From NCBI GenBank assembly GCA_004556455.1, contig SFGY01000005.1:72712-136711 (forward strand): 64,000 nt of DNA, read 5' to 3'. Under the pieces are notes generated by a model. It made no database searches. It was not told the origin of the DNA and was given only the letters and a program-made list of their open reading frames with translations. The first letter of the stretch is position 1, and each line of letters opens with the position of its first letter. The DNA is from Clostridiales bacterium (GTDB taxonomy: Bacteria; Bacillota; Clostridia; Saccharofermentanales; DTU023). The translations under genes were made by a program, and so were the position numbers. Shown here piece by piece: positions 1,958-17,142 of this stretch.

Positions 1958-2236
1958 TTGAAATTAAGTGAGACGAGCTTTTTCTCTACAGGCTTTGGCA
2001 GTTTTGCTTCTGCTGTTCGCCTGGTCGCTGTGGTCGCACCCGATGCGGCTCCTGTTCGCCGTCTCATTCAGGAGGCGCGGGATCGCGGCGCCCTCATTGA
2101 TGCCACTGCCGGGCGCAAAACACGTTCGGTTTTGCTGATGGATTCTGATCACGTGCTGCTTTCCGCCCTCAGTCCGGAGCTTCTTATGAAAAACATGAGC
2201 GATCTTCCTGAGGCTGCAGCGGAGGTAAAAGCATGA
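1958..2236 (+). CDS. remA: RemA/DUF370 family regulator
   Basis: 92-aa ORF (TTG start) with ...APVRRLIQEARDRGALIDATAGRKTRSVLLMDSDHVLLSAL..., closely resembling B. subtilis RemA; conserved synteny yicC-remA-gmk. Confidence 0.75.
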   Translation: MKLSETSFFSTGFGSFASAVRLVAVVAPDAAPVRRLIQEARDRGALIDATAGRKTRSVLLMDSDHVLLSALSPELLMKNMSDLPEAAAEVKA

Positions 2237-2886: not shown

Positions 2887-2892
2887 GATACC

Positions 2893-3438
2893 ATGTTGGT
2901 TGATCCACCGATTGAAGAATTATTGCCCTACGTGGATAATCGCTATGTTCTGGCCATGATTACGGCAAAACGTGCTCGCCAGCTCATTGATGGGGCACAG
3001 CCCATGACCGAAGAAAGCGAGGACCTGACGAATGTTGTCACGCAGTCGGCTAAAGAACTGACGAAGCACACGCTGAAAATTCTCATCGGCAAACATGAGG
3101 TTACCGTCCCGCTGCGTCCGGAAGTGGAAGCCGCCAGGCTTGAGGCGGAGATCCTGGCCAAACAGAAGCGCGAGGAAGCTCTTCTGGAAGAAAATAAGCG
3201 TCAGGATAACAGCAACAATTCTGTCCGCGAACAGTTGGAGCGCGAAGCGGCTATGGCTGATGCGAGCAGTCAGGATTCCGCCCGCGAATTTACAGAGCAG
3301 CTGATTCGTCTGATTGGTCGCCACAGTGAGGAATCTGAGGCCCTGGCTGAGGCAGAAGCGACTGGAAACGCAGCGCCTGAGGAAGAGCCGGAGCTTGAAG
3401 CTCTCGATTCTGCAGCTGATGAGAAAATGGAGATCTGA
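2893..3438 (+). CDS. rpoZ: DNA-directed RNA polymerase subunit omega with long acidic C-terminal extension
   Basis: N-terminal [16 protein letters not shown] omega signature; position after gmk; 181 aa, about twice the usual length. Confidence 0.8.
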
Positions 3439-3439
3439 G

Positions 3440-4828
3440 ATGAATCCTGCTGATTTCACAATGGATACGCTGGTGGCTCTGGCGACAAATCGCGGCTTTG
3501 TCTACCCTGGTTCCGAAATCTATGGGGGCCTGGCCAATTCCTGGGACTACGGTCCTTATGGAGCTGAGCTTAAGCGCCGTATTAAGGATGCCTGGTGGCG
3601 TTTCTTTGTCACGGAAAACGAACACACGGTGGGACTGGACAGCGGGATTCTTATGAATCCTGAAGTCTGGCGAGCCTCTGGCCATGTGGGCGGCTTTTCC
3701 GACCCCCTGATTGACTGCCGTGATTGCCACAGCCGTTTTCGTGCCGACAATCTTATTGAAAATTTTTACCGTGCTAAGGAAGAGACGATTCAGGTAGAGG
3801 GTCTTTCTAACGATGAACTCCTGACCATCATACGTCGGGACGGCATTCCCTGCCCGAACTGCGGATCTCATGATTTTACGGACATCCGGCAGTTCAATCT
3901 GATGTTTAAAACCTTCCAGGGCGTGACCGAAGGTTCGCAGGCGGAAATCTATCTGCGGCCTGAGACGGCACAGGGCATTTTCGTCAACTTCCGCAATGTG
4001 CAGCGGACATCCCGCCGCAAACTGCCTTTCGGTATTTGTCAGATTGGCAAATCTTTCCGTAATGAAATCACCCCGGGGAATTTTATTTTCCGTACCAGAG
4101 AATTTGAGCAGATGGAACTGGAATTTTTCTGCAAACCAGGGACGGATCTCGAGTGGTTCCAATACTGGCGCAGCTTTATCCATGACTTTCTCCTGCGCCT
4201 GGGCCTTCCGGAAGAAAAGCTGCGTCTGAGAGACCATGATAAAAAGGAGCTCTCCTTTTATTCGAAAGCCACGACCGACTTTGAGTTCGCCTTCCCCTTT
4301 GGCTGGGGCGAGCTCTGGGGCCTGGCCGATCGTACAGATTATGATCTGCACCAGCACATGGACATCAGCAAACAGGATCTGCGCTACTTTGATCCGGAAA
4401 GCAATGAAAAGTATCTGCCCTACGTGGTGGAGCCTTCTGTCGGGGTCGAACGCCTCTTCCTTGCACTGCTCTGTGCGGCATACGATGAACAGCAGCTGGA
4501 AAAAGAAACCCGCACGGTTCTGCATTTTCATCCTGCTATGGCTCCGGTGCAAATCGCTCTCCTGCCTCTCTCTGCTAAACTGAGTGAAAAGGCTCTCGAG
4601 CTCATGCCCCGCCTGCGCAAGTCAGGCACGGTTGAGTTTGATGACCGTCAGTCCATCGGCAAGCGCTATCGCCGCCAGGACGAGATCGGTACGCCTTACT
4701 GCGTCACTTACGATTTTGACAGCGTTGAAGATCAGCAGGTGACCATTCGCGAACGTGACAGTATGGAACAAATCCGCCTTCCCATCAGTGAGCTTGAGGC
4801 TTACTTTGACGGGAAATTTGAGCTTTGA
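3440..4828 (+). CDS. glyQS: glycine--tRNA ligase (class II, alpha2 type)
   Basis: [24 protein letters not shown] start region and class II motifs. The ATG at 3440 lies 1 nt after the rpoZ stop, so the track ORF start at 3314 is taken as upstream read-through. Confidence 0.9.
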
Positions 4829-5038
4829 TGCGTGGGGTTCTCAACGCGACCTCTTTGAGCAGACAAAGCAAGTGACTTCCGTCCGGTTGCTGCAAAGGCA
4901 ACGCGACAGGCAGGCAGGGGTCTTCGGCTGACACGGATATGAGCCGAAACAAGGGTTTCCCGAAGGCTGCAACAGGTCAACACTGTGATGCTTCTGGAAT
5001 ATAAGCAGAAATAGGATAAATTGAAATGGAGGAATTTT

Positions 5039-7702
5039 ATGACGAAGTTTGTATACATGTTTAAGGAAGGCAATGCTACGATGCGCAACCTCCTTGGAGG
5101 TAAAGGCGCCAATCTCTGTGAGATGATGAATATCGGCCTGCCGGTGCCGCATGGCTTTACCATTTCCACGGAAGCCTGCACGGCGTACTACAAGGATGGC
5201 CGCGAGATCAGCCCGGAGATCAATGAGCAGATCTTTGCAGCCCTGAAAAAAATGGAACAGGAGACGGGCAAGGTCTTCGGTGACAAGCACAATCCGCTGC
5301 TGGTCTCCGTACGTTCCGGAGCACGTGCTTCCATGCCGGGTATGATGGACACGATTCTCAACCTCGGTCTGAATGACGAAGTGGTCGAAGGTCTTATCGA
5401 GCTTTCCGGCAACCCGCGTTTTGCGTATGACAGTTATCGCCGCTTTATCACGATGTTCGCTGACGTCGTCATGGGCATCGACAAGAATAATTTTGAGACC
5501 ATTCTCGACGATCTGAAAAAGCAGAAGGGTGTTGAACTGGACACCGATCTCGATGCCGATGACATGAAGGAAATGGCCAAACGCAGCCTGGCCCGCTACG
5601 CTGAACTGAAAGGCGAAGCTTTCCCGCAGGAGCCTAAAGAACAGCTGATTGAAGCGGTTAAAGCCGTTTTCCGCAGCTGGATGAATGACCGTGCCATTTA
5701 CTATCGCCATATGAACAACATTCCCTCAGATTGGGGCACGGCCGTCAACGTTCAGGAAATGGTTTACGGCAACATGGGCGAAGATTCCGGCACCGGCGTG
5801 GCGTTCTCCCGTAACCCGGCCACCGGCGAACCCGGCATTTACGGTGAGTATCTCATGAATGCTCAGGGCGAAGACGTCGTTGCAGGTATCCGTACTCCCT
5901 TCCACATCGATCATATGAAAGAGCAGATGCCCGAGGTCTACAAGCAGTTTGTGGATGTCATCAACACGCTTGAAAAACACTATGGCGATATGCAGGACAT
6001 TGAGTTCACCATCGAAAAAGGCAAACTCTTCATGCTGCAGTGCCGCAATGGTAAGCGCACGGCTCAGGCTGCGCTGCGCGTTGCCGTGGATATGGTCAAT
6101 GAAGGTCTGGTTGACAAGAAAAAGGCCCTTCTGCAGATTGATCCCAACAGCCTGGATGCCTTGCTCCATCCGATGTTTGACCAAAAGGCTCTGAAAGCCG
6201 CGAAGAAGATTGCCAAAGGCCTGCCGGCTTCTCCGGGTGCTGCAGCCGGCCAGATCGTCTTCACCGCAGAGGACGCCAAAGCGGCCAAAGAGGCTGGTAA
6301 GAAGGTCATTCTGGTCCGCCTCGAAACCTCTCCCGAAGATATTGTGGGCATGAACGTTTCCGAGGGTATCCTCACCGTACGCGGCGGTATGACTTCACAT
6401 GCGGCCGTGGTCGCCCGCGGTATGGGCAAATGCTGTGTCTCCGGCTGTGCTGAAGCTTCTGTCAACGAGAAAGCCAAGACCTGCACCATTGGCGGCAAGG
6501 TCTACCATGAATTTGACGAAATGTCTCTCGACGGGTCTACCGGCCAGGTTTATGAAGGTCTGGTCCCGACCGTCCCCGCAGAGATTTCCGGCAATTTCGA
6601 AACGATCATGAACTGGTCTGATGAGATTCGCCAGATGAGCGTCCGCACCAACGCCGACACCCCCAAGGATGCCAAAAAGGCCCGTGAACTCGGCGCCGGC
6701 GGTATTGGTCTTACCCGTACCGAACACATGTTCTTTGAAGCGGACCGCATCTTCCAATTCCGCCGCATGATCCTGGCGAAGACAGAAGAAGAACGCCGCG
6801 ATGCGCTGGCTAAGATCGAACCGATCCAGCAGGGCGACTTCGAAGGAATTTTCCAGGCCATGGACGGCTTCCCGGTGACCATTCGTCTCCTGGATCCGCC
6901 TCTCCATGAATTCCTGCCTCATACCGAGCCTGAAATGAAAGAACTTGCGGATTCCATGGGCATTAAACTTGCGGATGTACAGCAGGTGGTTAAGGATCTG
7001 CACGAGCTCAACCCGATGCTCGGCCTGCGTGGCTGCCGTCTTTCCATCGTCTATCCGGAAATCGCCGAAATGCAGACTGCGGCCATCATCAAAGCCGCCC
7101 TTAAGGTCCAGAAAGATGGCGTCAAGGTCTTCCCTGAGATTATGGTACCGCTGATCAGCTGCGCCAAAGAGCTGGCTTTTGTTCGCAATGTCATCTGTAA
7201 GGTGGCGGACGAGCTTATCGCCAAATCGGGTCAGAGCCTGAAATACCATGTTGGTACGATGATCGAAATCCCGCGTGCAGCTCTGACCGCCAAAGAGGTG
7301 GTTCAGCAGGCTGACTTCTTCAGCTTCGGCACCAATGACCTCACCCAGATGGGTTACGGCCTCTCCCGTGACGACGCCGGTAAGATTCTTGAGACCTACT
7401 ACGAAAAGGGCATCTTCGAAAATGACCCGACCGCTATCCTCGACCAGGTGGGTGTTGGCCGCCTCATGGAAATCTGTGCCAAAGAATCCCGTGAAGTGAA
7501 ACCCGAAGTCCATCTCGGCATCTGCGGTGAGCATGGTGGTCAGCCCGATTCCATCGCATTCTGCCACAGCCTCAACTTCGACTATGTCTCCTGCTCGCCT
7601 TTCCGTGTGCCGATCGCCAGACTGGCAGCGGCTCAGTCCGAGATCCGGAATCCCCGCGAATATCGCAGCACCGATCTGAAGCAGTATTTCGACAAGAAAT
7701 AA
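5039..7702 (+). CDS. ppdK: pyruvate, phosphate dikinase
   Basis: MTKFVYMFKEG...LLGGKGANLCEM start, catalytic GGMTSHAAVVARG motif and PEP-utilising C-terminal domain; GGAGG lies 6 nt before the ATG at 5039. Confidence 0.92.
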   Translation: MTKFVYMFKEGNATMRNLLGGKGANLCEMMNIGLPVPHGFTISTEACTAYYKDGREISPEINEQIFAALKKMEQETGKVFGDKHNPLLVSVRSGARASMPGMMDTILNLGLNDEVVEGLIELSGNPRFAYDSYRRFITMFADVVMGIDKNNFETILDDLKKQKGVELDTDLDADDMKEMAKRSLARYAELKGEAFPQEPKEQLIEAVKAVFRSWMNDRAIYYRHMNNIPSDWGTAVNVQEMVYGNMGEDSGTGVAFSRNPATGEPGIYGEYLMNAQGEDVVAGIRTPFHIDHMKEQMPEVYKQFVDVINTLEKHYGDMQDIEFTIEKGKLFMLQCRNGKRTAQAALRVAVDMVNEGLVDKKKALLQIDPNSLDALLHPMFDQKALKAAKKIAKGLPASPGAAAGQIVFTAEDAKAAKEAGKKVILVRLETSPEDIVGMNVSEGILTVRGGMTSHAAVVARGMGKCCVSGCAEASVNEKAKTCTIGGKVYHEFDEMSLDGSTGQVYEGLVPTVPAEISGNFETIMNWSDEIRQMSVRTNADTPKDAKKARELGAGGIGLTRTEHMFFEADRIFQFRRMILAKTEEERRDALAKIEPIQQGDFEGIFQAMDGFPVTIRLLDPPLHEFLPHTEPEMKELADSMGIKLADVQQVVKDLHELNPMLGLRGCRLSIVYPEIAEMQTAAIIKAALKVQKDGVKVFPEIMVPLISCAKELAFVRNVICKVADELIAKSGQSLKYHVGTMIEIPRAALTAKEVVQQADFFSFGTNDLTQMGYGLSRDDAGKILETYYEKGIFENDPTAILDQVGVGRLMEICAKESREVKPEVHLGICGEHGGQPDSIAFCHSLNFDYVSCSPFRVPIARLAAAQSEIRNPREYRSTDLKQYFDKK

Positions 7703-7831
7703 GCAGAACTTTTAAGACACCGGGGAAAGCCCATCAGCTGTGATTTGTGGCTCCGGGTGCATCGGCTATGAACAGCAGCTCCGTGCCATCGGCTATGAAC
7801 TGCGTCTCATAAAAAGTTTAAGCACATAAAA

Positions 7832-7868
7832 CGGAGCGGTCTCTTTTAGAGATCGCTCCGTTTTTTCA
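7832..7868 (+). terminator. Rho-independent terminator after ppdK
   Basis: 13-bp stem acggagcggtctc/gagatcgctccgt (1 mismatch), 5-nt loop, T6 tail. Confidence 0.8.
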
Positions 7869-7996
7869 TTTCAGCTGTCTGGGAAAGCAGGGAGAAGGCT
7901 TGGAAAAGCATGACGAAGAAAGGTGATCAGCCCACGATAGAAAAATTAACATGCCACACTGACCAGCAGACGCTGGCTAAAGTCTGAGCTGCTGGC

Positions 7997-8938
7997 TTAG
8001 ACGCTCGTCTGAGGGGTCTCCTGCAGGTTCAGATCTTCCTGGGAGTGGGTCAGAACAAAGTTCCAGAAAGCCTCTGCGAGAGCTGTTGGAGCCTCTTTAC
8101 GATCGCGCAGCATAAAAAACTTTCGGGAAAGCGGCCGATCTTCAAGCTCAAATTGCAGGATAGTGCCGCGCCGCACATCTTCTTCCACGAGCAGATTGGA
8201 AATAATGGAAACGCCCATCCCCCTCCGCACGGAGGCGATAATGGCGCGGGAAAGCTCCATACGGGCTCGCACGCGCATGGAAAGGACATCGACATTGAGT
8301 TCTTCAAGGTATTCTTCAATACGTTTCAGAGTACCGGACCCTTCTTCGCGGAGGATAAGCGGTTCGGACAGGAGTTGACTCCCTGGCACGCCATCCTGTT
8401 TAAGCCTGCGAAAGCGCTCGCTGTTTTCGGTGATCAGAACCAGACGATCTTCGGCAACGGCCACAGATTCGAGACTGGAGCGGTGGATCGTTTGTCCCAC
8501 AAAAGCCAGTTGAATTTCATTATCCAGAAGTTTTTGCAGGGTACGCGTAGAATCTCCGGCAAGAAGACGGCAGCAGCAATCAGGATTCTCTTTGCTGAAA
8601 GCAGTCAGCCAGGCGGGAATAAGGGCGTGTGATGGCACGGTCGAAGCACCGATTAAAAGCTCGCGGTCTTCATTAAATTCCATCTCAGATTCCAATTTTT
8701 TACAGCGTGCAAGAATATCCTTGGCATAACGGTAAACACCACGGCCGGAACTGGTCAGGCGGACATTTTTCTTAGCCTCTCGTCGAAAGAGACGAACACC
8801 AAGTGCATTTTCAAGTTCTCTGATATGCCCGGAAATGGTCGATTGCGCAAGATAGAGGCGCTTACCCGCTTCTGTAAAACTACCCGTCTCAACTACGGCA
8901 ACCAGAACTTCAAGCTGCCTCAAACTCATTTCTGCCAT
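7997..8938 (-). CDS. LysR family transcriptional regulator
   Basis: N-terminal HTH (LRQLEVLVAVVETGSFTEAGKRLYLAQSTISGHIRELE) plus LysR substrate-binding domain, 313 aa. Confidence 0.9.
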   Translation of the reverse strand: MAEMSLRQLEVLVAVVETGSFTEAGKRLYLAQSTISGHIRELENALGVRLFRREAKKNVRLTSSGRGVYRYAKDILARCKKLESEMEFNEDRELLIGASTVPSHALIPAWLTAFSKENPDCCCRLLAGDSTRTLQKLLDNEIQLAFVGQTIHRSSLESVAVAEDRLVLITENSERFRRLKQDGVPGSQLLSEPLILREEGSGTLKRIEEYLEELNVDVLSMRVRARMELSRAIIASVRRGMGVSIISNLLVEEDVRRGTILQFELEDRPLSRKFFMLRDRKEAPTALAEAFWNFVLTHSQEDLNLQETPQTSV

Positions 8939-9173
8939 ACGTGCTGCCTCAACCTATGCTCCTGGTGTAAACTATCGAAATTACCTATAATAAATAAGCA
9001 GCACTACAATCTCTTGATGATTTAAATCAGCTGATTCAGCGACAAGATGAAGTCTATTCAGACCACATTTATTCTGCATTATTTATCACTCGAAACGATT
9101 TTAACTCTTTCCCAATAATTTTCAAGCGGGTTTAAGACGACCAGGATCTGAATCAAGCTTAAAAAGTCCTTCA

Positions 9174-9211
9174 TTATCGGCGCTGGAATGCTATGAATGG
9201 TTTAGCCAGAA
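9174..9211 (-). other. displaced original 3' end of the VanZ-like gene (attL side)
   Basis: The minus strand reads ...LAKPFI-AFQRR-TAA. The first 6 codons are identical in DNA to the current 3' end of the VanZ-like ORF at 16652-16670. Confidence 0.7.
9193..9211. repeat. attL core (19-bp direct repeat ATGAATGGTTTAGCCAGAA)
   Basis: Exact 19/19 copy of 16652-16670. Confidence 0.8.
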
Positions 9212-9310
9212 CAATATGACCATTTTTAGACATTTAACAGCTTGATTTTATCGGCCTTGTGAGTACCGGCACAGGCTGATTTTGACCTGTTTTTCATAGC
9301 TTTGCGATTT

Positions 9311-9330
9311 TTTGTTACCTTTTTGTTACC
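9311..9330. repeat. tandem arm-type repeat TTTGTTACC x2 (11-bp spacing), left end of island
   Basis: tttgttacctttttgttac, with 19/19 identity to 16589-16607; overlaps the integrase stop codon. Confidence 0.7.
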
Positions 9331-10378
9331 CCAGCCCGTTCAATTTGTTCATGACCTCTTGCTCTTCAGTTGGGTAAAAATGTGAGTATGTATCAAGCGT
9401 CATTGACACCTTCGCGTGACCTAACCGCTTGCTAATCAATACAATGTTAACGCCCTCTTGAATCAACAGGGAAGCATGCGAATGTCTGAGGCCGTGAACA
9501 TGAATGCGCTTTACCCCGGAGGCCCGACAGCCTTCAGCTATTCCCTTTTCAATGAAGCGTTTTTCCCATAAGAACACGGGCGCTTGCGGGGAGGTGTCGA
9601 AACAGTGGGCTTTATATTCCTGTAGAAGCTCGATCATGTGCCGGGGAAGCATAATGCGGCGCCTTTCGCCTGTTTTGGTAGGTGTGACAACGGCCCGACC
9701 CTTTAGGCGCTGGTATGACCGGTCAATCGTCACAGTGCCTTCTTTGAAGTCGAGCTTTTCCCACGTGAGCGCCAATAGCTCGCCTTTGCGCATACCTGAC
9801 CAGTACAGCAGCGCTATAGCCGTTTTTGCCTTGATGTCTGAAACCTCAGCAATAACCTTTGTGTACTCTTTCAGCGTCCAAAAACGCATATGTTTTTTCT
9901 CTTCATTTGCTGAGCGTGGAGGCCCGGCGAGTGAGCACGGATTGGCTTTCAGACCGTAGAGTTTAACCGCGTGATTGAAAATAGATGATAGCGTTTCCTG
10001 GAGCGCTTTCATGTATGTATTGCTGAGCCCTTGCTGAATTAAACCATTCTGCCAAGCTACAACCCTTTTAGCGTCGATATCTTTCAAGTTCATGTCGCCA
10101 AAGAAAGGGATTAAATGTTTTTTAATTCTGAAGTCTTTGGTCTGAATGGTATGTTACCGAAGTTGCGGGTCTACGTCTTTTTTGTAGAGCTTAACAAAAT
10201 CGCTAAATGTCATATCCGGCTGAAAAGCCGCGTTCGCTAGCTGGTCATGCTCGTAGGCCTCAGCCTCCCGCTTCAGGAGAAAGCCTGACTTCTTAATCTG
10301 CTTTGACTTTCCTGAAGCGTCCTTCATGCGGTAAATGCAGAACCATTTTCCCGTTTTTTCATTCTTGTAGACGGTCAT
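9326..10378 (-). pseudogene. int: tyrosine recombinase/integrase interrupted by a single in-frame TAA (10154-10156)
   Basis: Track ORFs 10154..10417 (arm-binding N-terminus MTVYKNEKTGKWFCIYR...) and 9326..10093 (catalytic domain with HGLRHSHASLL and LGHAKVSMTLDTYSH) are in the same frame. Reading through the stop gives ...DPQLR*HTIQTKDFRIKKHLIPFFGDMNLKDI..., a normal integrase core-binding region. Confidence 0.8.
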
Positions 10379-10940
10379 GGATGGTTTCATCCTCGGCTTG
10401 AGCCTTAGCCTTATCAATGTCTATTCCTTCTTTGAAACGGTGTGGGTTCGCCTGCACTAGCGCATATAGTTTAAATTTGAAATACTCTGCTATGAACTTT
10501 GATATTTCTTCCATTTCCTTAAAAGTAATGAGGTATGCTCCATTAACTGGAATATACCCATCTTCAAAATAGACAGCGCAATCTATATTTTTCTCTCCAG
10601 TGTCATTTAATGAATACATGGGGGCGTAGTGCAAACGTTCGTCCATATAGACTAAATTCTCAAAAAACTCATTGTTTATGTCGTATTTGTAAAATTCTTT
10701 AATATCGTCCCCTGTTTTTAAATCTTCTGTCAACGAATCAAGCGGGACATCCAAAGCCTGGGAAATTTTTGTCAATGTCTCAATACTCGGGGCACGATAT
10801 CCGCGCTCGTAGTTAGACAGAGCAGAAGGCTGAATTCCTATCTTCTCGGCCAAACATTTTTGGGATATGCCCTTTTTTTCTCTAGCATATACGATGCTAA
10901 AACCAAGACTGTCATAAAAGTTATTTATTTTATTGGCCAT
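10359..10940 (-). CDS. XRE-family HTH repressor with unknown C-terminal domain (cI/Stl-like position)
   Basis: MANKINN... start with GGAG RBS; HTH KKGISQKCLAEKIGIQPSALSNYERG; same strand as int and divergent from the cro-like gene. Confidence 0.7.
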   Translation of the reverse strand: MANKINNFYDSLGFSIVYAREKKGISQKCLAEKIGIQPSALSNYERGYRAPSIETLTKISQALDVPLDSLTEDLKTGDDIKEFYKYDINNEFFENLVYMDERLHYAPMYSLNDTGEKNIDCAVYFEDGYIPVNGAYLITFKEMEEISKFIAEYFKFKLYALVQANPHRFKEGIDIDKAKAQAEDETIHDRLQE

Positions 10941-10962
10941 GTCGTCATCTCCTTCTACAAAC

Positions 10963-11052
10963 AAAATACACAATGCGTGATGTATTTTCAAGTAAAAGCT
11001 TGACACATCACGAATCATGAATTACTATCAGAGAAAATACACGAAACGTGAT
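10963..11052. promoter_or_regulatory. divergent promoter/operator switch region
   Basis: Plus strand: TTGACA (11000-11005), 17-nt spacer, TACTAT (11023-11028). Minus strand: TTGAAA (10986-10991), 17-nt spacer, TATTTT (10963-10968). The 8-bp inverted repeat CGTGATGT (10976-10983) / ACATCACG (11005-11012) places one copy in each spacer. A third half-site CGTGAT lies at 11047-11052. Confidence 0.6.
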
Positions 11053-11076
11053 CGAGAAGGAGGCGAAAATCACAGA

Positions 11077-11274
11077 ATGAAACTTAACACTCTTGAAATT
11101 GACTTAGCTAGAGCCAAATTAGGCGTAAGTCAGACCGAACTAGCCGAAGCTGCAGGAATTAGCAGGGTATGGTTGGGAATTTTGTTAAAGCGTGGCGAGG
11201 CTTCCGCTGACATAGTAGTTAAATTGGCCGCTGCACTAGGTGTTTCTCCTGGAGAAATAATTAACGAAGGCTAA
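11077..11274 (+). CDS. XRE-family HTH protein (Cro-like position)
   Basis: 65-aa product MKLNTLEIDLARAKLGVSQTELAEAAGIS... The start is uncertain; the track ORF starts at 11017 without an RBS. Confidence 0.6.
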   Translation: MKLNTLEIDLARAKLGVSQTELAEAAGISRVWLGILLKRGEASADIVVKLAAALGVSPGEIINEG

Positions 11275-11314
11275 CCATGGCCGAATTACTAGGTATGAAG
11301 GAGGAACCCTAACC

Positions 11315-11530
11315 ATGAAGCAATACCCTGCAACCGTTGACGAACTGAAGCGAATGAAAGAGCTTGAACGCGCCTATCACGTTCAAATTACTAAAGACGA
11401 ACATTTCAACTATTACGCAGTCATTAGCAAGCTATCCAGCGGAGACGCTTCAGTCACCTTGTTGGACGACTTAGACCAGGTTGAAGACTGGCTATATAAC
11501 GACTGGGTATTAAATGACGAGGATTTTTAA
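11315..11530 (+). CDS. hypothetical protein (71 aa)
   Basis: GGAGG RBS about 9 nt upstream; no recognisable motif. Confidence 0.5.
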   Translation: MKQYPATVDELKRMKELERAYHVQITKDEHFNYYAVISKLSSGDASVTLLDDLDQVEDWLYNDWVLNDEDF

Positions 11531-11532
11531 CC

Positions 11533-11730
11533 ATGGCTGAATTACTAGGTGTGAATGAAGTTGTAAATATCGTAGGAACCGGCCCTGATGCAGCCTATAA
11601 GATCATACGCGAGTTAAACTCAGAACTCAAAGAACGGGGCTTTCTCGTTGTTCGCGGGCGTATTGCTGAAAACTACCTTCGGGAGCGGCTGAACCTTGAA
11701 AGGGGCAAAGAATGCCTGACCGACAAATAA
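11533..11730 (+). CDS. small HTH DNA-binding protein, excisionase-like
   Basis: 65 aa, MAELLGVNEVVNIVGTGPDAAYKIIRELN...; size and position (between switch and replication gene) fit Xis/HTH_17-type proteins. Confidence 0.5.
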   Translation: MAELLGVNEVVNIVGTGPDAAYKIIRELNSELKERGFLVVRGRIAENYLRERLNLERGKECLTDK

Positions 11731-13832
11731 CAATCAGCACAGCTAAAAGCGTTGAGACTAAGAAATGGAATGTCTCGACTATTACGGCTTCGCAATTTAT
11801 TAAAGAGCTTAACTGGTTTCGGGAAATTCACTACACCCCGGAAGACTTCGCGAAGCTAACAGCCGAACAGCGCAGGGATTTAAAGAACGGCTCTTGCTAC
11901 GTTTTCGGAGCCCTGGATGATACAGGAAAGCGGCAGAAAGGCCATATTCTAACCCGCGAGGGGCTGACCTATGACTTAGACAATATTAACCGCGAAACGC
12001 TTAATGAGGTGCTTTTCTGTCTCAGTGAGAGCGGTTATAACTACGCTGTTCATAGCACCGCAAGCTATGACGGAAAGAACGCAAAAGTTCGCGTGATTAT
12101 TCCTTTCTCACGAGCGATCAGCCCGGAGGAATACAAGGCGAAAGCGAAAGCAGCAGCGCCCTTGTTTGCTATTCCTGTTGATGATGATGTGAGTTCTTTT
12201 GAGGATACGCGCGCTCTATATCGCCCAACTAACCTGAAAGGCGTAGAACCTCTGTATTACGCCCGGACAGATGGCGAGTTCTTAGACCCTGACACGCTGG
12301 AAGCGCCGGAAATGCCCCTAGAACGCGTCACACCTGCTGAGCCTCAAGTTATGCCAAAGAACGAGGAGCGGGCGCAGATTGACGACCTGACGGCCATGGA
12401 GGCGGTACGCAAACAGGTTCACTATGACTGGAAGAACTTGCAGGACAGAGAAAACTATTTAGCGGCGCTTATGGTGATAGTCTCTGCCGTTCAGCACGGA
12501 GAGATCACGAGAGAAGCGGGCGAGGCTTGCGCGGTGCTACTGGCGGGAGATCGTAAGGACTGGAAAGAACCGAATCGTAAACAATTCTTTAAAGAACTTG
12601 AGAACACAACGACAAGAACACAATACACGTTTTGGCAGAAGTTCGGAGGGGGAAGGCAAAGCCCGGATGGGGATTCATCAGAGGCTAACAAAACCGACTT
12701 GGTCTGCCTGGCCGATATAGAGCCGAAAGACGTTTTTTGGCTATGGAAAGGATACATTCCCCGCGGCATGCTATTCGGAATCCAGGGCGACCCTGGCAGT
12801 GGCAAAACATACAGCACACTTTCGATATGCGCAGGAATAACCCGCGGGGAGCTGCCTCCTGACTTGTTTGGCCCTGTAAAGATACCCCCTGAAAACATTC
12901 TCTACGTAAACGGCGAAGATTCACTAGAACATACCATAGTGCCCCGACTTATCAAATTGAGGGCAGATATGACCCGCTGCTTTACCTTAGACGAAAGAGA
13001 AAAGGCGCTAGACTTTTCACAGTTAGATCGAATAAAACGAGCTGTAGAAAAAGCGCGCCCCGCCCTTGTCATTTTTGACCCCATTCAAGCGTTTCTTGGC
13101 GCGTCTGTTGATATGCACAAGGCAAACGAGGTCAGACCGGTTATGGCTGCCCTCTCTCGCCTTGCTGATGAATTCAGCTTCGCTTGCGGGCTTGTTGGTC
13201 ATATGAATAAATACGGGGGCGGTAAGGCCATTTATAGAGGGCTTGGCTCGATTGATCAGCTGGCAAATTATCGTACTGCCTTTTTAATCGGTAATGACCG
13301 CAGAGCTTCAGATCAGAAACTTATGATTCAGATTAAAAACAATCTCGATCGTCCAGCGCCCCCTCAGATATTCCGCATTGAAAACGACAAAACTATTTCA
13401 TGGCTTGGCCCCGACCCTGAAGCCAAAGAGGCCGACATATTGCAAGAAGCAGCCGAAAAAGAAGGCACGGCACTTAATAAGGCAATTACCTGGCTAAGAG
13501 GCTTATTAGAAGAAAAACCCGTTTGGTCTAACGAACTTGACGAGGAGGCCGGAAAAAACGAGATCAGCAGAAAAACATATGAAAGAGCGCGTGCTACCTT
13601 GCGCGGAAGTTGGGAAATTGACACATACAGAGCGCCAGTGATTAATCGCTGGTACTGGGCTAAAAGAGGGAAAAAAGTCCATTTCGGAACTGAAGATGAA
13701 GGAAAATGCTCAATCGAATATGAAGATGATGAAGCCGTCAAAGTTGGCGAACTTGGCGAACATTGGCGAACTTGGCGAACTTTGGCGAACTTTGGCGAAG
13801 TTGGCGAAGTTGGCGAACTTGGCGAACATTGA
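11712..13832 (+). CDS. fused AEP-type primase-polymerase / AAA_25 (RepA/DnaB-like) helicase replication protein
   Basis: N-terminal LTYDLD (DxD) and AVHST motifs typical of archaeo-eukaryotic primases. Central Walker A GDPGSGKT, Walker B LVIFDP and GHMNK. The last ~30 aa are encoded by the iteron array. Confidence 0.75.
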   Translation: MPDRQITISTAKSVETKKWNVSTITASQFIKELNWFREIHYTPEDFAKLTAEQRRDLKNGSCYVFGALDDTGKRQKGHILTREGLTYDLDNINRETLNEVLFCLSESGYNYAVHSTASYDGKNAKVRVIIPFSRAISPEEYKAKAKAAAPLFAIPVDDDVSSFEDTRALYRPTNLKGVEPLYYARTDGEFLDPDTLEAPEMPLERVTPAEPQVMPKNEERAQIDDLTAMEAVRKQVHYDWKNLQDRENYLAALMVIVSAVQHGEITREAGEACAVLLAGDRKDWKEPNRKQFFKELENTTTRTQYTFWQKFGGGRQSPDGDSSEANKTDLVCLADIEPKDVFWLWKGYIPRGMLFGIQGDPGSGKTYSTLSICAGITRGELPPDLFGPVKIPPENILYVNGEDSLEHTIVPRLIKLRADMTRCFTLDEREKALDFSQLDRIKRAVEKARPALVIFDPIQAFLGASVDMHKANEVRPVMAALSRLADEFSFACGLVGHMNKYGGGKAIYRGLGSIDQLANYRTAFLIGNDRRASDQKLMIQIKNNLDRPAPPQIFRIENDKTISWLGPDPEAKEADILQEAAEKEGTALNKAITWLRGLLEEKPVWSNELDEEAGKNEISRKTYERARATLRGSWEIDTYRAPVINRWYWAKRGKKVHFGTEDEGKCSIEYEDDEAVKVGELGEHWRTWRTLANFGEVGEVGELGEH

Positions 13833-13891
13833 CGAACTTGGCGAACTTTGGCGAACTTTGGCGAAGTTGGCGAAGTTGGCGAACTTGACGA
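13744..13891 (+). repeat. iteron array (putative island replication origin)
   Basis: 16 direct copies of TTGGCGAA (14 exact, 2 TTGACGA) spaced 9-10 bp apart, with a 66-bp higher-order period. Confidence 0.8.
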
Positions 13892-14035
13892 GCCCTAGCA
13901 CACATGGCGGGGTAGGTAGTAGTAGGCAAGACAGTTTACCCGGCACACCCTAAAAAAAGCGCAAAAGGTGAAATGTAGTTCACATAATAATAAAAAATGT
14001 GCAATTAGCTTCAGGGTACTACTACCCCGTCAATG

Positions 14036-14052
14036 TTCGCCAAGCTGGCGAA
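14036..14052. repeat. inverted iteron pair TTCGCCAA-g-CTGGCGAA
   Basis: Imperfect palindrome built from the iteron word, located beyond an A+T-rich stretch (about 13955-14010). Confidence 0.6.
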
Positions 14053-14277
14053 GTTCCCCTGAACTGGTCACGCAATAAACCGGAAGTAGATAATAGTTGC
14101 TCAAGCGCGCCCGGTGCTGATTGCAAAGGAGGTTTCACGAAAGCATTTAAGAGTATCAAAACCAAAAACGCGAAGCAGAAATAACCGTCCCTACCCTGAG
14201 AAAGCACACAGGACAAACAAGAAACACAAAACACAAAGGCACACAACATCAAAGAACATGAAGGAGGATTGAAAAAC

Positions 14278-14583
14278 GTGAAACATCAAAGCACAAAAAA
14301 AGGGGCTTGCCCTCTTACCACAGACCAGCAGCCCCACGACTTAAAAGCCGTTAATGACAGTATGAACCATGAAGGCGGGGAATTTCAACTGATACTAAGC
14401 TACAAAGATGGGATAGCTTATGCCTCAGACGGTTATGACACAACTGAGCTATTGCCCGGAACCTTTCAAATGATTGTTGACGCTGTAGCAATAGCTGGCA
14501 AGCTGAAACAGGAAGGCAACTTCAACAGCATAGAAGAATACCTGACCGAAATAAGGAAAAGGCGGGAGAAAGCAGAAGAATAA
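14278..14583 (+). CDS. hypothetical protein (101 aa)
   Basis: GTG start about 10 nt after AAGGAGGA; followed by a terminator-like hairpin; no recognisable motif. Confidence 0.5.
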   Translation: MKHQSTKKGACPLTTDQQPHDLKAVNDSMNHEGGEFQLILSYKDGIAYASDGYDTTELLPGTFQMIVDAVAIAGKLKQEGNFNSIEEYLTEIRKRREKAEE

Positions 14584-14659
14584 ACACTTGACCGCCCTGA
14601 AAGCTATTGCCAGGGCCCGCCAGGTGTAAAGAGGTACAACAGAACAAAAGCCGGAGCAA

Positions 14660-14687
14660 GGGGTCTGCATATCGCAGCCCCCTTTTT
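14660..14687 (+). terminator. Rho-independent terminator
   Basis: Stem ggggtctgc/gcagcccc (one bulge), 5-nt loop, then cTTTTT. Confidence 0.7.
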
Positions 14688-15318
14688 AATGGCAGAAGGC
14701 TATCACAAGAAACCCCGCAAAAATTTCCTCACGCGCGCGCGAGATATTGCCGCTGTCGCTAACCCCTATCCGACAGCCACCCCCTAAAGATTTTTGCATT
14801 TTTTTACCCCCCTGCCCTTAGCCGTATCACTTAAAGCCAGGTTAAAGCCGTGTATTCTGTGTGTTTCTCTTTCCTCACGAAAACCCCGCGCTCCTCACGG
14901 CCAACGGGAAAACATGAACCACGTTTCCCGCATGATTGTTTCATCGCTCAGATGATTAGCAAGAGGGCAAAACTAGAGAATGGCAACGGCTAATAGCCAG
15001 TAAACAAGGAGCTAGTAATCACACTCAAGGCCGCTTGAAGCTAGCGATTTCTACCCCCTCTTACCCTCAGAAAGAAAAGATTTTCGCATAAGAAACCGCT
15101 AATAATAGTTGGAAATATTTCACTTTTAGCAGCTTTTTGCTGAGAGAAGAACACGATTAAAGCACGATCAGGAACAACAAACAAGAGCGGGCACCCTTTC
15201 ATGTGTTTTTATGTGCAGTGACGGCGAAAGGCGCGCCCATGCTGGTAGGGAGGAGGTAGCCCACGCCTTTAGTAAAGGCAAAGCAAGGGCTGAAGCTGTC
15301 AAAATTTCTTTGACAAGT

Positions 15319-15345
15319 GCCGGTTACTGAAAACGGCTTTTTTTA
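15319..15345 (+). terminator. terminator-like hairpin inside the ORF-free tract
   Basis: Stem gccggtt/aacggc (one bulge), 6-nt loop, T8 run. Confidence 0.6.
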
Positions 15346-15538
15346 TGGCGAAGGTCGACCGCGGCCAGTCCCGACAAAATATATAATTTCCTCTCGCTCC
15401 TATAGAAACCCTCAGCACGCAAGCGATGAAAAGCTAAGCGCCCCGCTTTATATTGCTATTAGCCGCTTGTGGTGTTAGAATCTTTTTAAGAACATAAGAT
15501 ATCTTGAAGTATATGTATAATATTCAAATAAATATCTA

Positions 15539-15575
15539 ACTTCGACAAACTGGTATTTTGCGAAGTTCGTTTTTT
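15539..15575 (+). terminator. terminator-like hairpin inside the ORF-free tract
   Basis: 7-bp stem aacttcg/cgaagtt, 15-nt loop, followed by cgTTTTTT. Confidence 0.4.
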
Positions 15576-15759
15576 GCATAATATACAGGGCTTGAAATGC
15601 CCTATTATCAGGGCTTACAAAACTGCAAAAACTAAGACAAACTACAAACAAAAAACACGAAGTCTATAAAAAGCGTTAGAACGCATTTGAGAATGAATAA
15701 TATACATCGGGATATTTTATCAATCGTTAAAAGTGTTTCTATTGTGGAGGTACGGTGCT

Positions 15760-15996
15760 ATGATCAGTTATAAACCTTTAGCCCACACACTCATTGACAA
15801 GGGGATAAACAGGGCAGAGCTTGGGCGGCGGTGTGGCTTTTCCCCTTCTACGCTCGCGAGACTTGGCAAGGACAGAAGCGTAAACCTAACTGTTATTGAG
15901 CGGCTATGCTTAGAGCTTGGCTGCCAGGTGCAAGACGTTGTAGAAATACTTCCCGACCCGGAAGGGATAACAGAGCCGCCAGGTGCTGAGCTTTGA
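15760..15996 (+). CDS. XRE-family HTH protein (78 aa)
   Basis: MISYKPLAHTLIDKGINRAELGRRCGFSPSTLARLGKD...; GGAGG RBS before the ATG at 15760. Confidence 0.7.
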   Translation: MISYKPLAHTLIDKGINRAELGRRCGFSPSTLARLGKDRSVNLTVIERLCLELGCQVQDVVEILPDPEGITEPPGAEL

Positions 15997-16058
15997 TAGC
16001 TGGTCAAGGAAATATAGCGGCCAAGCGTTAAGCAATTTGTTCACAGGAGGCTGCAATC

Positions 16059-16586
16059 ATGGAAACCTCAGAAGCCGTTAGCTCTGAACCTGTACGCCAT
16101 ATCACAGACGAAGAATACAGGCGCATAGCTGAGGCTTGTTTTATTCCTCTAGCTGACGAACAAGCCAACGTCAACGACAAACGGGAAGCACTGGCGCGAC
16201 GGCGGCAGAAGATCAGCAGCGCGCAAAGCTCCTGTTACTTCGGAGGTGGGCACGCTGACCGACACAGCCCGCAGGATAAAGAAGCGGCTATAGCTGAGTT
16301 AGTCGACCTTGAGCGGGAATTTGATTTTTTTGAAACTCTAGTTATTTTTTGGGGGCTGGAATATGAAAACTGGCTTTTCAGCTTCATATCTTCCGGGCTT
16401 CTCTCTCGTGATGAGTACGCCTGCATTATTTCCCGCCATACAAGAGGGCTAAAAGGTGAAGCAGCATTAAAGGCCGCTGAAACGAGCTGGCCAACCTTCA
16501 AACGCAAACTAAAAAGCGGGCTTGTAAAGCTAGGAAAACACCTTCAAAAAACAGGCGAAAAACCGCCTGAAAAATTTTTTGCCTGA
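16059..16586 (+). CDS. hypothetical protein; C-terminus resembles a sigma-70 region-4 / phage late-activator-type HTH
   Basis: 175 aa; AGGAGG RBS; C-terminal LSRDEYACIISRHTRGLKGEAALKAAETSWPTFKRKLKSGLVKL looks like an r4 HTH. The assignment is tentative. Confidence 0.4.
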   Translation: METSEAVSSEPVRHITDEEYRRIAEACFIPLADEQANVNDKREALARRRQKISSAQSSCYFGGGHADRHSPQDKEAAIAELVDLEREFDFFETLVIFWGLEYENWLFSFISSGLLSRDEYACIISRHTRGLKGEAALKAAETSWPTFKRKLKSGLVKLGKHLQKTGEKPPEKFFA

Positions 16587-16588
16587 AA

Positions 16589-16607
16589 TTTGTTACCTTT
16601 TTGTTAC
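16589..16607. repeat. tandem arm-type repeat, right end of island
   Basis: tttgttacctttttgttac, identical to 9311-9329. Confidence 0.7.
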
Positions 16608-16641
16608 TCCAAAAATCAAAAATCCATGAAAATACGGCATT

Positions 16642-17142
16642 TCAAAGTCTAATGAATGGTTTAGCCAGAATCAGACCCAGGATGAGCCCCAGGGTGTTGA
16701 GCAGAATATCGTCGATATCCCAGACGCCGATGCCCGTCAGTAATTGTAAAAATTCGATCAGGAGGATACAAAAAAGACCGGAAAAGAAGAGCCTGAAATG
16801 ACCTTTATTTCTCAGGAGCAGACGACCCAGAAAACCATAGGGAAGAAAAATAAGGAGATTGCCGAGGAGATTCAAAAGCGCCAGGTGGAAATGTGGGCCA
16901 CCCGGTTCCAAGAGCTGCGAGAAGAGACGAATGCTGTGTAAAGGTTTCAGGTTAAAGGCTTCGCCCACCTGAGGGTCCAGAAGGGTCAGATAAGGTGACA
17001 GTTGCTGAGGCTGCATAAAGGGGAGCGTTTTAAAAAGTAAAAGTGAGAAAACGCAGCAAAGGTAGAGCAAAAAGCACAGCCAACCCACGATGCTCAGCCA
17101 GGTCAAAGAAGAATGTAAACGTTTATGGCTCATAAGCTGCAT
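16642..17142 (-). CDS. VanZ-like family membrane protein (3' end supplied by the island)
   Basis: Multi-TM 166-aa ORF with LGNLLIFLPYGFLG and WDIDDILLNTLG motifs typical of VanZ-like proteins. Confidence 0.8.
   Translation of the reverse strand: MQLMSHKRLHSSLTWLSIVGWLCFLLYLCCVFSLLLFKTLPFMQPQQLSPYLTLLDPQVGEAFNLKPLHSIRLFSQLLEPGGPHFHLALLNLLGNLLIFLPYGFLGRLLLRNKGHFRLFFSGLFCILLIEFLQLLTGIGVWDIDDILLNTLGLILGLILAKPFIRL
16652..16670. repeat. attR core (19-bp direct repeat)
   Basis: Exact copy of 9193-9211; encodes the LAKPFI codons of the VanZ-like ORF. Confidence 0.8.

Follow-up and report, generated by a model that had tools for sequence, protein, structure and literature searches.

A PICI-like integrative island in the 3' end of a VanZ-like gene of a Clostridiales bacterium

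SaPIs and other Gram-positive PICIs, in the definition of Penades and Novick (PMC6092414), are induced and packaged by phages. Some satellites manage without terS: the cos-type PICIs SaPIbov5 and EcCICFT073 and the PICMIs rely on cis-acting sites and/or on the helper's own packaging machinery (PMC6092414, PMC10803314), whereby PICMIs encode three core proteins only, for excision and replication, and do not remodel capsids (PMC10803314). More than 6000 "Type C PICIs" are known, which are called ambiguous, and the SatelliteFinder authors allow that such elements, with three of the five core components, may be defective PICIs or mobile elements of another kind (PMC10085698). TerS-poor islands that have been studied experimentally are the StCIs of Streptococcus thermophilus: a protein of a virulent phage induces them, natural competence moves them, and they confer phage resistance (PMC13376191). 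Here, we analyzed a 64-kb stretch of a Clostridiales contig (SFGY01000005.1; "the window"), which probably contains an integrative island of 7.46 kb that replicates itself and is built like a Gram-positive PICI of SatelliteFinder "Type C".

Boundaries, insertion site and integrase

The 19-bp sequence ATGAATGGTTTAGCCAGAA is present in exactly two copies in the window, at 9193-9211 and 16652-16670, as a first-pass annotation had reported, whereas 100 shuffles gave 0 matches even with two mismatches tolerated. The insertion between the copies comprises 7,459 bp. The region is composed of the following features:

9174-9192, minus strand: original end of the VanZ-like gene (AFQRR-stop) that was displaced; same reading frame as the left core
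9193-9211, unstranded: attL core, 19 bp, exact repeat, single copy in the empty site
9309-9330, unstranded: candidate arm-type integrase site of the P' arm, TTTTTGTTACC twice as a tandem repeat
9326-10417, minus strand: tyrosine integrase pseudogene, Arm-DNA-bind_4 and catalytic domain, in-frame TAA at 10154-10156
10359-10940, minus strand: XRE-family repressor, 193 aa, Stl/Rpr analogue (PF01381, E 8e-19)
10941-11076, unstranded: divergent regulatory region with direct repeats and a promoter-like site
11077-11274, plus strand: Cro-like XRE regulator, 65 aa, Str analogue (PF01381 and PF07022)
11315-11530, plus strand: 71-aa ORF without family match, lying between the copies of a 31-bp duplication
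11533-11730, plus strand: excisionase-like protein (Xis), 65 aa (NF047858 and phrog_989)
11712-13832, plus strand: fused primase-helicase (pri-rep), 706 aa (phrog_256/9765 and PF13481)
13741-14059, unstranded: replication origin, AT-rich spacer between two iteron sets
14278-14583, plus strand: 101-aa orphan ORF with a strong RBS; terminator-like hairpin downstream (~14657-14690)
14584-15759, unstranded: conserved mosaic non-coding tract, ~1.15 kb, with modules 14720-14838, 15185-15395 and 15395-15740
15760-15996, plus strand: HTH_26 (XRE-type) regulator, 78 aa (PF13443, E 1e-13)
16059-16586, plus strand: 175-aa orphan protein, all-helical, with third-position bias
16589-16608, unstranded: candidate arm-type integrase site of the P arm, TTTGTTACCTTTTTGTTAC
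16652-16670, unstranded: attR core, 19 bp, exact repeat of the attL core
16642-17142, minus strand: host VanZ-like gene, 166 aa here (PF04892 and translation)

Translation of the VanZ-like ORF confirmed that the right core encodes its last codons: the protein ends in LAKPFIRL, whereby the final two codons and the stop come from the island. Eight publicly available contigs of this species have the site, adjoining the LysR gene, in uninterrupted form, and there it equals, base for base, the left flank of attL, the core and the right flank of attR. The VanZ protein of these empty-site alleles has 169 aa and the C-terminus LAKPFIAFQRR, and both the earlier reading of the AFQRR tail as the displaced gene end and the proposed site-specific integration into the 3' end of VanZ are thereby borne out. 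Overall, the site is empty in about 11 of the 15 contigs of the species. The island was inserted by a tyrosine integrase lineage through recombination at the 19-bp core within the last codons of the VanZ-like gene, for which it supplies a substitute 3' end.

An integrase gene is present at the left end of the island as annotated before, but in the window copy it is a nonsense pseudogene, which had been missed. The TAA separates the arm-binding from the catalytic part, so that in a Pfam search of the island PF14657 and PF00589 match two ORFs of the same reading frame. The related copy L003 has GAA at this position and an intact integrase of 350 aa, and L004, an independent assembly, carries the identical TAA; across the contigs, the integrase is split on five and 350 aa long on most others. 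With the GAA to TAA change, the window copy can probably not move by itself and would stay fixed at its site as long as no integrase is provided in trans. The arm-type motif has only two matches in the window, one near each island end. In the related islands L003, L004, L014, L017 and L024 each end has it as well, and in the attP junction of L018 the P-arm candidate lies ~45 bp ahead of the core. It might be that the integrase binds at these motifs.

Regulation, replication and the right arm

The previously proposed gene order (int, repressor, cro-like gene, 71-aa ORF, xis, primase-helicase, iterons, small ORF, tract, regulators) is correct, and the succession int / repressor / cro / xis / pri-rep / ori matches the published layout of Gram-positive PICIs (PMC6092414). 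The repressor consists of an N-terminal HTH_3 and an uncharacterised C-terminal domain and matches PHROG repressor and regulator families, whereby the start that yields 193 aa agrees with the gene calls in L004 and L014. Neither an S24 peptidase domain in the repressor nor an ImmA-type protease gene in the island was found by Pfam search. The Cro-like regulator has 65 aa in the gene call of L004, too. In the divergent region between both genes, two 24-nt direct repeats (10958-10981 and 11029-11052, 79% identical, repeat family D10) may serve as operators, and the best promoter-like site is located at 11000-11028 (TTGACA-17-TACTAT, 10/12 matches). The 71-aa ORF had no match in family and profile searches; the duplication around it is one of the xis start (11272-11302 and 11528-11558, 90% identity, repeat D5), and in the islands L011 and L015, which have no such ORF, xis directly follows cro. 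Xis resembles the ICEBs1 Xis family NF047858 of NCBIfam (E 4e-12, under the curated cutoff) and phrog_989 (E 5e-16). Among the related copies, repressor modules of 193, 161 and 182 aa are swapped beside integrases that are 94-98% identical, which indicates that the repressor/cro module is exchanged between lineages as a unit.

The N-terminus of the primase-helicase resembles phrog_256/9765 (primase/helicase), the protein contains an AAA_25 domain (PF13481, E 6e-24) with a RepA/RadA-type fold according to a PDB profile search, and its C-terminal tail is encoded by the iterons. Its length is 684, 687, 690, 693 or 706 aa in the population, and in the L017 copy the gene is split. The origin contains ~16 direct TTGGCGAAC iterons (13744-13891), the AT-rich spacer (~13950-14010) and an inverted iteron pair (14028-14059); TRF reported period 9 with 15.8 copies and period 66 with 2.3 copies, and the inverted repeats are I1, I2 and I5. 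In L014, the helicase C-terminus and the iterons both differ from those of the window, and as this comparison shows, the two are exchanged between lineages as one replication module.

The 101-aa ORF is called as a gene in L004, L014 and L053 and had no family match in profile searches; among 5.8 billion proteins it forms only two clusters of at least 93% identity, and its substitutions are too few to prove coding. The adjoining tract, annotated before as ORF-free, is indeed non-coding by its substitutions, which lack codon periodicity, but its conserved and mosaic character had been overlooked. Conservation of the tract extends to all related islands, whereby its modules are 76-92% conserved in L014, L018 and L024, with changed order or inverted, and a 78-bp deletion is common to the window and L003. 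The ORFs and stop-free segments of the tract gave no family match and no remnant of a structural, lysis or transfer gene, and the tract showed no Rfam match, covariation or unusual stability and no match to sequenced phages. In the HTH_26 gene 8/9 and 9/9 substitutions fall on third codon positions, thus the gene is under purifying selection. For the 175-aa gene the third-position counts are 33/64, 12/22 and 20/32, thus it is coding. Among 1.84 billion representatives its product retrieves no cluster except its own; it has no match in Pfam, PHROG, NCBIfam, PADLOC or PDB and an AF2 pLDDT of 51. The former label "sigma-r4-like" finds no support, since no search gave a sigma-70 region 4 signal. 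The selection on both genes indicates that the right-hand module is functional and not debris.

Related copies and the nature of the island

For this island type, empty, single-copy and tandem states of the site are documented, and it also occupies a second site in the chromosome. One related copy occupies the site of the window copy and has an intact integrase, another lies at the different chromosomal site, where identity stops exactly at the cores, and a tandem pair, 99.99% identical, has a complete attP junction. Thus, the element is mobile, and the near-identity of the pair indicates a recent insertion. The size is conserved at 7.3-7.5 kb across copies; no free circular contig was found. 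Two more distant att-bounded islands share a homologous pri-hel/int/xis module. L015 (6.98 kb) carries terS (Terminase_4 30.9 bits vs. a cutoff of 24.7; phrog_5110, E 6e-22), and in L011 (10.5 kb) there are a homologue of a minor head protein (E 8e-111) and a phage-type regulator (Sigma70_r4/DUF1492), which supports a satellite lineage. In the island itself, Pfam and PHROG searches, tract segments included, found no structural, lysis, terS, cpm or capsid-morphogenesis gene, as had been noted for the packaging/interference and structural/lysis genes, which leaves three of the five SatelliteFinder PICI core components and thus "Type C". No cos/pac site or other packaging signal was identifiable in the island and no helper phage was found; of 2.9 million viral contigs in IMG/VR, none contains the island sequence or a close relative of its pri-hel.

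These missing packaging genes and the absence from viral contigs would also fit a phage-independent integrative plasmid-like replicon or integrative mobilizable element, in which the RepA-type primase-helicase drives replication after excision and movement occurs by transformation or by conjugative mobilisation, with an oriT in the tract and a relaxase in trans. The AAA_25/RepA-type helicase has plasmid relatives, the Xis is closest to that of the conjugative element ICEBs1, and the conserved tract could house a cis-acting transfer site. Nevertheless, we consider this unlikely: relaxase, coupling protein and T4SS genes were not found in the island (Pfam, PHROG, NCBIfam), distant matches of the helicase domain are far more frequent in phage (325) than in plasmid records (26), the homologous replication module sits in islands with terS or phage head/late-regulator genes, and the PICI layout of left arm and origin is, according to its describers, unique among known bacterial replicons (PMC6092414).

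It might also be that a terS-bearing PICI ancestor lost its packaging/interference module and that the island is a vertically inherited, decaying relic, for which the terS-bearing relative L015, the nonsense integrase of the window and L004 copies, the split primase-helicase of L017 and the shared 78-bp deletion could be cited. This is rather improbable in view of the integrase that is intact in most copies, the predominance of empty sites in the species, the selection on the two right-arm genes, and a terS-less architecture that recurs with exact boundaries at two att sites and in the recent tandem pair; decay is a property of individual copies and not of the lineage. A remnant of a prophage or ICE after loss of structural or transfer genes would likewise explain the phage-type integrase, the XRE repressor/cro pair and the phage-like replication protein. 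However, no trace of structural, lysis or transfer genes was found, even in the stop-free segments of the tract, copies at independent sites have the same compact content and conserved size, and the att junctions are precise and accompanied by an attP-type junction. A compact island with exact boundaries at two att sites and in a tandem pair is not a decayed prophage lineage, and we regard this origin as highly improbable.

As a PICI-like satellite, the island would be silenced in its rightward operon by the 193-aa repressor. As this repressor system has neither an autocleavage domain nor a partner protease, de-repression probably needs a trans factor, for which a protein of the helper phage, as with SaPI Stl, is the most plausible candidate, and the island would thus be phage-dependent. 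Cro-like protein, Xis and Int would then excise it, and the primase-helicase would bind the iterons, open the AT-rich spacer and replicate the circle. Transfer in helper-phage particles would have to proceed without island-encoded terS or capsid-remodelling proteins, possibly via a cis-acting site in the conserved tract as in SaPIbov5/EcCICFT073 or PICMIs. Alternatively, amplified DNA might be freed at lysis and then taken up, as for StCIs.

Comparison with described elements

With the ICEBs1 module the island shares the Xis resemblance, Arm-DNA-bind_4 in the integrase and an XRE repressor adjoining int, but not the ImmA-type anti-repressor protease, the relaxase or the conjugation genes. Like the cos-type PICIs and PICMIs (PMC6092414, PMC10803314) it has no terS; however, the cos of the former is recognisable by identity to the helper phage, whereas the island tract matches no phage, and the latter are Vibrionaceae elements under AlpA control that are unrelated in sequence. 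StCIs are, by their description, similar 7-20 kb Type C/D PICI-like islands with 16-18-bp bounding repeats, several integration sites, and int, regulatory and replication genes in the absence of structural genes (PMC13376191).

Gram-positive PICIs differ from the present island by their terS and cpm/ppi/pti-type interference genes, whereas the island has an AAA_25/RepA-type helicase as replicase, a right arm made up of the ~1.15-kb tract, the HTH_26 regulator and two orphan proteins, and an uncultured Clostridiales/Oscillospiraceae-like anaerobe as host. Common to both are the size class, the specific att site, the lack of structural and lysis genes, int on the left side of the divergent repressor and cro genes followed by xis and pri-rep (fused here), an ori directly 3' of rep whose AT-rich spacer lies between two iteron sets, and the swapping of repressor and rep-ori specificities as modules (PMC6092414). 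The first-pass suggestion of an undescribed lineage was therefore overstated: integrase, Stl-type regulator and primase-replicase, without the forbidden components tail, holin and portal, are what SatelliteFinder lists as "Type C PICI" (PMC10085698), and the island is a fairly ordinary member of this known class.

Boundaries and chromosomal site of the island

The 19-mer ATGAATGGTTTAGCCAGAA is present in two exact copies in the 64-kb window (9193-9211 and 16652-16670), while zero copies are expected in shuffled windows, even when two mismatches are permitted, and the direct repeat proposed in the first-pass annotation thus holds. The right copy forms part of the final codons of a VanZ-like ORF (PF04892; 16642-17142 on the minus strand) that ends in ...LAKPFIRL-stop, and the left copy is followed by an in-frame AFQRR-stop (9174-9192). 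The G+C content is ~0.52-0.57 in the flanks versus 0.37-0.50 across most of the island interval.

Features of the island (window coordinates; strand where assigned)
9193-9211: attL core, exact repeat
9309-9330: doubled motif TTTTTGTTACC at the left end, candidate arm-type integrase site
9326-10093 and 10154-10417, minus: tyrosine integrase, matches to the catalytic domain and to Arm-DNA-bind_4, respectively
10359-10940, minus: XRE repressor, 193 aa
between repressor and cro, 136 bp: control region, containing two direct repeats of 24 nt as well as the island's best promoter-like site
11077-11274, plus: Cro-like XRE protein, 65 aa
between cro and xis: 71-aa ORF
11533-11730, plus: ICEBs1-Xis-like protein, 65 aa
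11712-13832, plus: fused primase-helicase, 706 aa, with N-terminal primase-type PHROGs, AAA_25 and a RepA/RadA-type fold
13744-13891: putative origin, about 16 direct iterons TTGGCGAAC
~13950-14010: putative origin, AT-rich spacer
14028-14059: putative origin, inverted iteron pair
14278-14583: 101-aa ORF
between the 101-aa ORF and the HTH_26 gene, ~1.15 kb: ORF-free stretch (the tract)
15760-15996: HTH_26 regulator, 78 aa
16059-16586: 175-aa protein
16589-16608: motif TTTGTTACCTTTTTGTTAC at the right end, candidate arm-type integrase site
16652-16670: attR core, exact repeat

Empty sites were surveyed on contigs that encode an exact copy of the flanking LysR protein. In eight of these contexts the VanZ gene (169 aa) adjoins the LysR gene, and in two an island intervenes (loci L003 and L004); when further similar contexts are counted in, roughly 11 of 15 contigs are empty and four are occupied. 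Base for base, the empty sites each consist of the attL left flank of the window, a single core and the attR right flank, and the VanZ proteins from empty sites terminate in ...LAKPFIAFQRR-stop. The first-pass annotation had taken AFQRR for the likely displaced gene end and had called for an empty allele beside LysR, and both were found. The window outside the island is housekeeping in content. The host LysR carries the label "Clostridiales bacterium", and the neighbouring undecaprenyl-diphosphatase (BacA/UppP, PF02673, 17238-18416) has 392 aa compared to 340 aa in its homologue at locus L016 and includes a ~110-residue Pro/Gln/Arg-rich insertion (...RPPVRPQQRPQAG...).

Integration, control and replication modules

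The tyrosine integrase domains expected from the first-pass annotation are present; the gene itself is a pseudogene, its reading frame being broken by an in-frame TAA at 10154-10156. The identical TAA is found in the independently assembled L004, which equals the window island less one 66-bp iteron block. L003 carries GAA (Glu) at this codon and encodes an intact integrase of 350 aa, and most members of the integrase cluster have 350 aa, with split forms of 255 aa and 74 aa on five contigs. Thus, the window island carries a recent nonsense mutation and has probably lost self-excision. The integrase is likewise intact in the related islands L014 and L018. The motif TTGTTAC-N6-GTTAC occurs only twice in 64 kb, at 9309-9330 and 16589-16608, and is present at both ends of related islands, which fits arm-type sites that the integrase would bind. 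A metagenome scan with this motif yielded the known contigs again and otherwise unrelated matches, and 11 matches in IMG/VR were dismissed as chance matches, related genes being absent nearby.

Movement can be read from the related islands. L014 is inserted between genes for a PC4-like protein and a sortase, where its integrase, 95% identical to that of the window, uses a second chromosomal site. It matches the window at 95% identity over 9215-12652 and at 93-95% over 14109-16644, so that the identity ends only a few bases away from the cores; its flanking repeat GTGGGGATYGSTATGGTTTCCAT (~7445-7468 and ~14830-14853) has only ATGGTTT in common with the window core. L018 (ERZ1673752 NODE_166, 1031-16141) is a tandem pair located at VanZ/BacA, with three cores; the two copies are 99.99% identical and repeat with a period of 7,546 bp. 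Its middle junction consists of an arm site, ~45 bp, the core, ~100 bp and a second arm site, and is a complete attP. The L018 cores vary at one to two positions (TTGAATGGTTTAGCCAGAA at attL versus ATGAATGGTTTGGCCAGAA at the other two), which could serve to map the crossover region. As for free circular forms, the 7.4-kb locus L022 has no terminal overlap, and the contigs with an exact copy of the 175-aa protein are all chromosomal and none is circular.

The domain scan detected neither an S24 domain in the repressor nor an ImmA-type protease in the island, which suggests that repression may be relieved by a factor supplied in trans and is at most indirect evidence for induction by a helper phage. 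Three unrelated repressor/cro modules, with repressors of 193, 161 and 182 aa, occur beside near-identical integrases and backbones. In L003, the backbone is 96.5-99.6% identical to the window and an unrelated XRE pair replaces repressor and cro (7722-8565); the other swapped module is located at L018 2213-3106. These differences represent immunity-module swapping as known from phages and SaPIs. The 71-aa ORF is bracketed by a 31-bp duplication of the xis stop-RBS-start region (11272-11302 and 11528-11558, 90% identity), which leaves a relic mini-ORF (MAELLGMKEEP-stop). The ORF does not occur in L011 and L015, two more distant islands with a homologous replication module, and was apparently inserted between cro and xis at a later time.

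The iterons of the putative origin start inside the 3' end of the primase-helicase gene and continue just past it. Since they make up the 3' end of the ORF, one 9-bp iteron corresponds to three codons, and gain or loss of iterons, such as the 66-bp block that the window has in excess of L004, alters the C-terminal tail of the protein. Primase-helicases of 684, 687, 690, 693 and 706 aa occur in the population. The putative origin of L014 has the identical layout with different iterons (GTTGTCAT/ATGACAAC around an AT-rich spacer), and the helicase C-terminus differs as well; since both were exchanged together, the iterons may be read by the C-terminal part of the protein. In the related island L017 (5489-7452), the primase-helicase is split into ORFs of 218 aa and 408 aa, which is a second case of decay of an individual copy.

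The right-hand module

Downstream of the origin, the window was compared with L018, L014 and L003 by codon position. Substitutions fall mostly at third codon positions in the HTH_26 gene (8/9, 9/9 and 14/24) and are enriched there in the 175-aa gene (33/64, 12/22 and 20/32), while those in the tract are without periodicity (8/8/8 and 6/5/8). Thus, the HTH_26 and 175-aa genes are real and the tract is non-coding. Pfam and PHROG searches of its stop-free segments revealed no gene remnants either, in line with the ORF-free stretch described in the first-pass annotation. The label "sigma-r4-like" given there to the 175-aa protein had to be dropped, and a role as late regulator was rejected along with it, all searches being negative: Pfam gave no match with the E cutoff relaxed to 5, BLASTP and hhalign showed no similarity to the true Sigma70_r4/DUF1492 protein of L011, and a PDB profile search gave no match. 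No relative beyond its own cluster was found among 5.8 billion clustered proteins or by exhaustive HMMER search of 1.84 billion representatives, and its AlphaFold model (pLDDT 51) is unusable for a fold search. The 101-aa ORF is an orphan as well, a search for remote homologues having yielded none.

Three modules of the tract (14720-14838, 15185-15395 and 15395-15740) are 76-92% conserved in L014, L018 and the related island L024, in other order or orientation. The tract diverges from L014 by 3.7%, not faster than the genes (3.3-4.2%), with the exception of 15091-15290 (19.5%). In addition, 78 bp that are present in L014 (13396-13461) and L018 (6806-6869) are missing from L003 and from the window at 15286. 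A "3.2-kb gene-free tract" in L024 turned out to be partly a gene-calling gap, since an uncalled HTH_26 homologue lies inside it.

No known or structured RNA was detected in the tract: Rfam had no match inside the island (E up to 1) or inside those of six related loci, RNAalifold found no compensatory changes in tract modules A and B, and folding-energy z-scores were no better than -2.2 in 18 tiles of 150 nt on both strands. A phage-derived cos or pac site was not detected either, and no helper phage was found. By blastn, 13890-16650 (tract and right-hand module) matched none of 50,697 phage records, and the exact conserved tract blocks are absent from IMG/VR. The most economical guess is that the tract acts in cis as a packaging, promoter or transfer site. 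The right-hand module stands where packaging and interference genes normally sit and is the modestly novel element of the island. That tract, HTH_26 regulator and the 101-aa and 175-aa orphans together replace a terS/capsid-remodelling module and constitute a new route of helper-phage exploitation seems unlikely to us. On such a route, helper proteins might, for example, directly recognise cis-acting sites in the tract for packaging or late promoters, or alternatively the tract might give rise to small RNAs interfering with the helper. If true, uncultured anaerobic Clostridia would harbour a minimal satellite that hijacks particles and encodes no packaging protein. The lineage would gain interest if a packaging or interference function of the tract were established.

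Class of the element and its family

All ORFs and the stop-free tract segments were scanned with Pfam and PHROG, and no phage structural or lysis genes came up. This is what a PICI would show, and it speaks against a prophage, of which capsid, portal, terminase large subunit, tail and lysis genes or their remnants are all absent. An ICE or IME is not indicated either: neither a relaxase nor coupling protein/T4SS domains were found in the island, an oriT being unrecognisable from sequence alone. With regard to an anti-phage defence island, PADLOC returned only generic HTH matches to the repressor. Among distant relatives of the helicase domain, 325 phage records stand against 26 plasmid records. 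IMG/VR contains neither the island sequence nor a close primase-helicase relative, which would argue against a satellite but is still compatible with packaging; single-sequence and profile searches found only one primase-domain relative of 27% identity. For the packaging components of the SatelliteFinder PICI model the scans were negative: there is no Terminase_* or PHROG terS match and no detectable capsid-morphogenesis or interference gene, the 101-aa and 175-aa orphans being the ORFs in the expected place. The first-pass annotation had reported both gaps, that of capsid, tail, terminase, portal and lysis ORFs and that of the terS/interference module, and they persist under profile searches. 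Overall, the island is genuine and has exact boundaries; it is an integrative and replicative element built like a PICI, and its integrase is inactivated in the window copy.

The island is a member of a small and rare family found in uncultured anaerobic Clostridia, with only three loci among 185,579 species representatives, all in Clostridia MAGs (Oscillospiraceae, Clostridiales and Fastidiosipilaceae). At the family level, a satellite is supported by L015 (6.98 kb, 21-bp tRNA-end repeats) and L011 (10.5 kb, 24-bp repeats), more distant islands that share a homologous int/XRE/cro/xis/primase-helicase left arm. L015 encodes terS (Terminase_4 above the Pfam threshold; phrog_5110, E 6e-22), and canonical terS-bearing satellites are among the more distant members. 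In L011, a homologue of a minor head protein (phrog_2494, E 8e-111) is accompanied by a regulator of the Sigma70_r4/DUF1492, phrog_36 type. The islands L011 (7790-7955), L015 (7713-7800) and L024 (14294-14367) adjoin tRNA genes, and in L015 and L011 the 3' end of the tRNA forms the flanking repeat, whereas the window lineage uses 3' ends of protein genes instead. The closest helicase-domain relatives in the phage database, at a distant 31-39% identity, are the "Bacteriophage sp." contigs MT839393.1, MT839352.1, MT838296.1 and MT836086.1 (including L051 and L052), which are unannotated human faecal contigs of 4-13 kb and could be packaged satellite-like replicons.

To our knowledge, satellites have hardly been described so far in Clostridiales/Oscillospiraceae-like anaerobes. 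The present PICI-type family from such uncultured hosts is documented to the base pair in attB, attL, attR, attP and arm-type sites, and also in its iteron origins and its swaps of immunity module and replication specificity. Within one replication-module family, it offers a natural series on minimal satellite functions, comprising a terS island, an island in which a head protein occurs with a phage-type regulator, and islands lacking terS. In practical terms the gain is modest and consists in the correct annotation of a "hypothetical" region and an integrase pseudogene.

Gram-positive PICIs have divergent regulators, namely a master repressor transcribed together with int and a rightward cro-like gene; int lies on the left, and xis, pri-rep (fused in some cases) and ori follow on the right. 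The ori comprises an AT-rich region between two iteron sets, and terS is only "sometimes" present (PMC6092414). The layout of the island agrees with this point by point. It has a specific att site (core, empty and occupied sites, attP junction) with tyrosine integrase domains at the left end, a divergent pair of a 193-aa XRE gene (minus) and a 65-aa XRE gene (plus), a rightward xis followed by primase/replication initiator and ori, and a putative origin with direct TTGGCGAAC repeats, an AT-rich region and an inverted pair. The SatelliteFinder PICI model comprises integrase, regulator, primase-replicase, capsid morphogenesis and terS (PMC10085698). With three of the five components, the island corresponds to "Type C", elements which were counted in thousands and are considered ambiguous by the SatelliteFinder authors (PMC10085698). 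The StCIs of S. thermophilus are likewise of Type C/D; a protein of a virulent phage induces them, and their transfer relies on natural competence (PMC13376191). The PICMIs demonstrate that a satellite can make do with three core proteins (PMC10803314).
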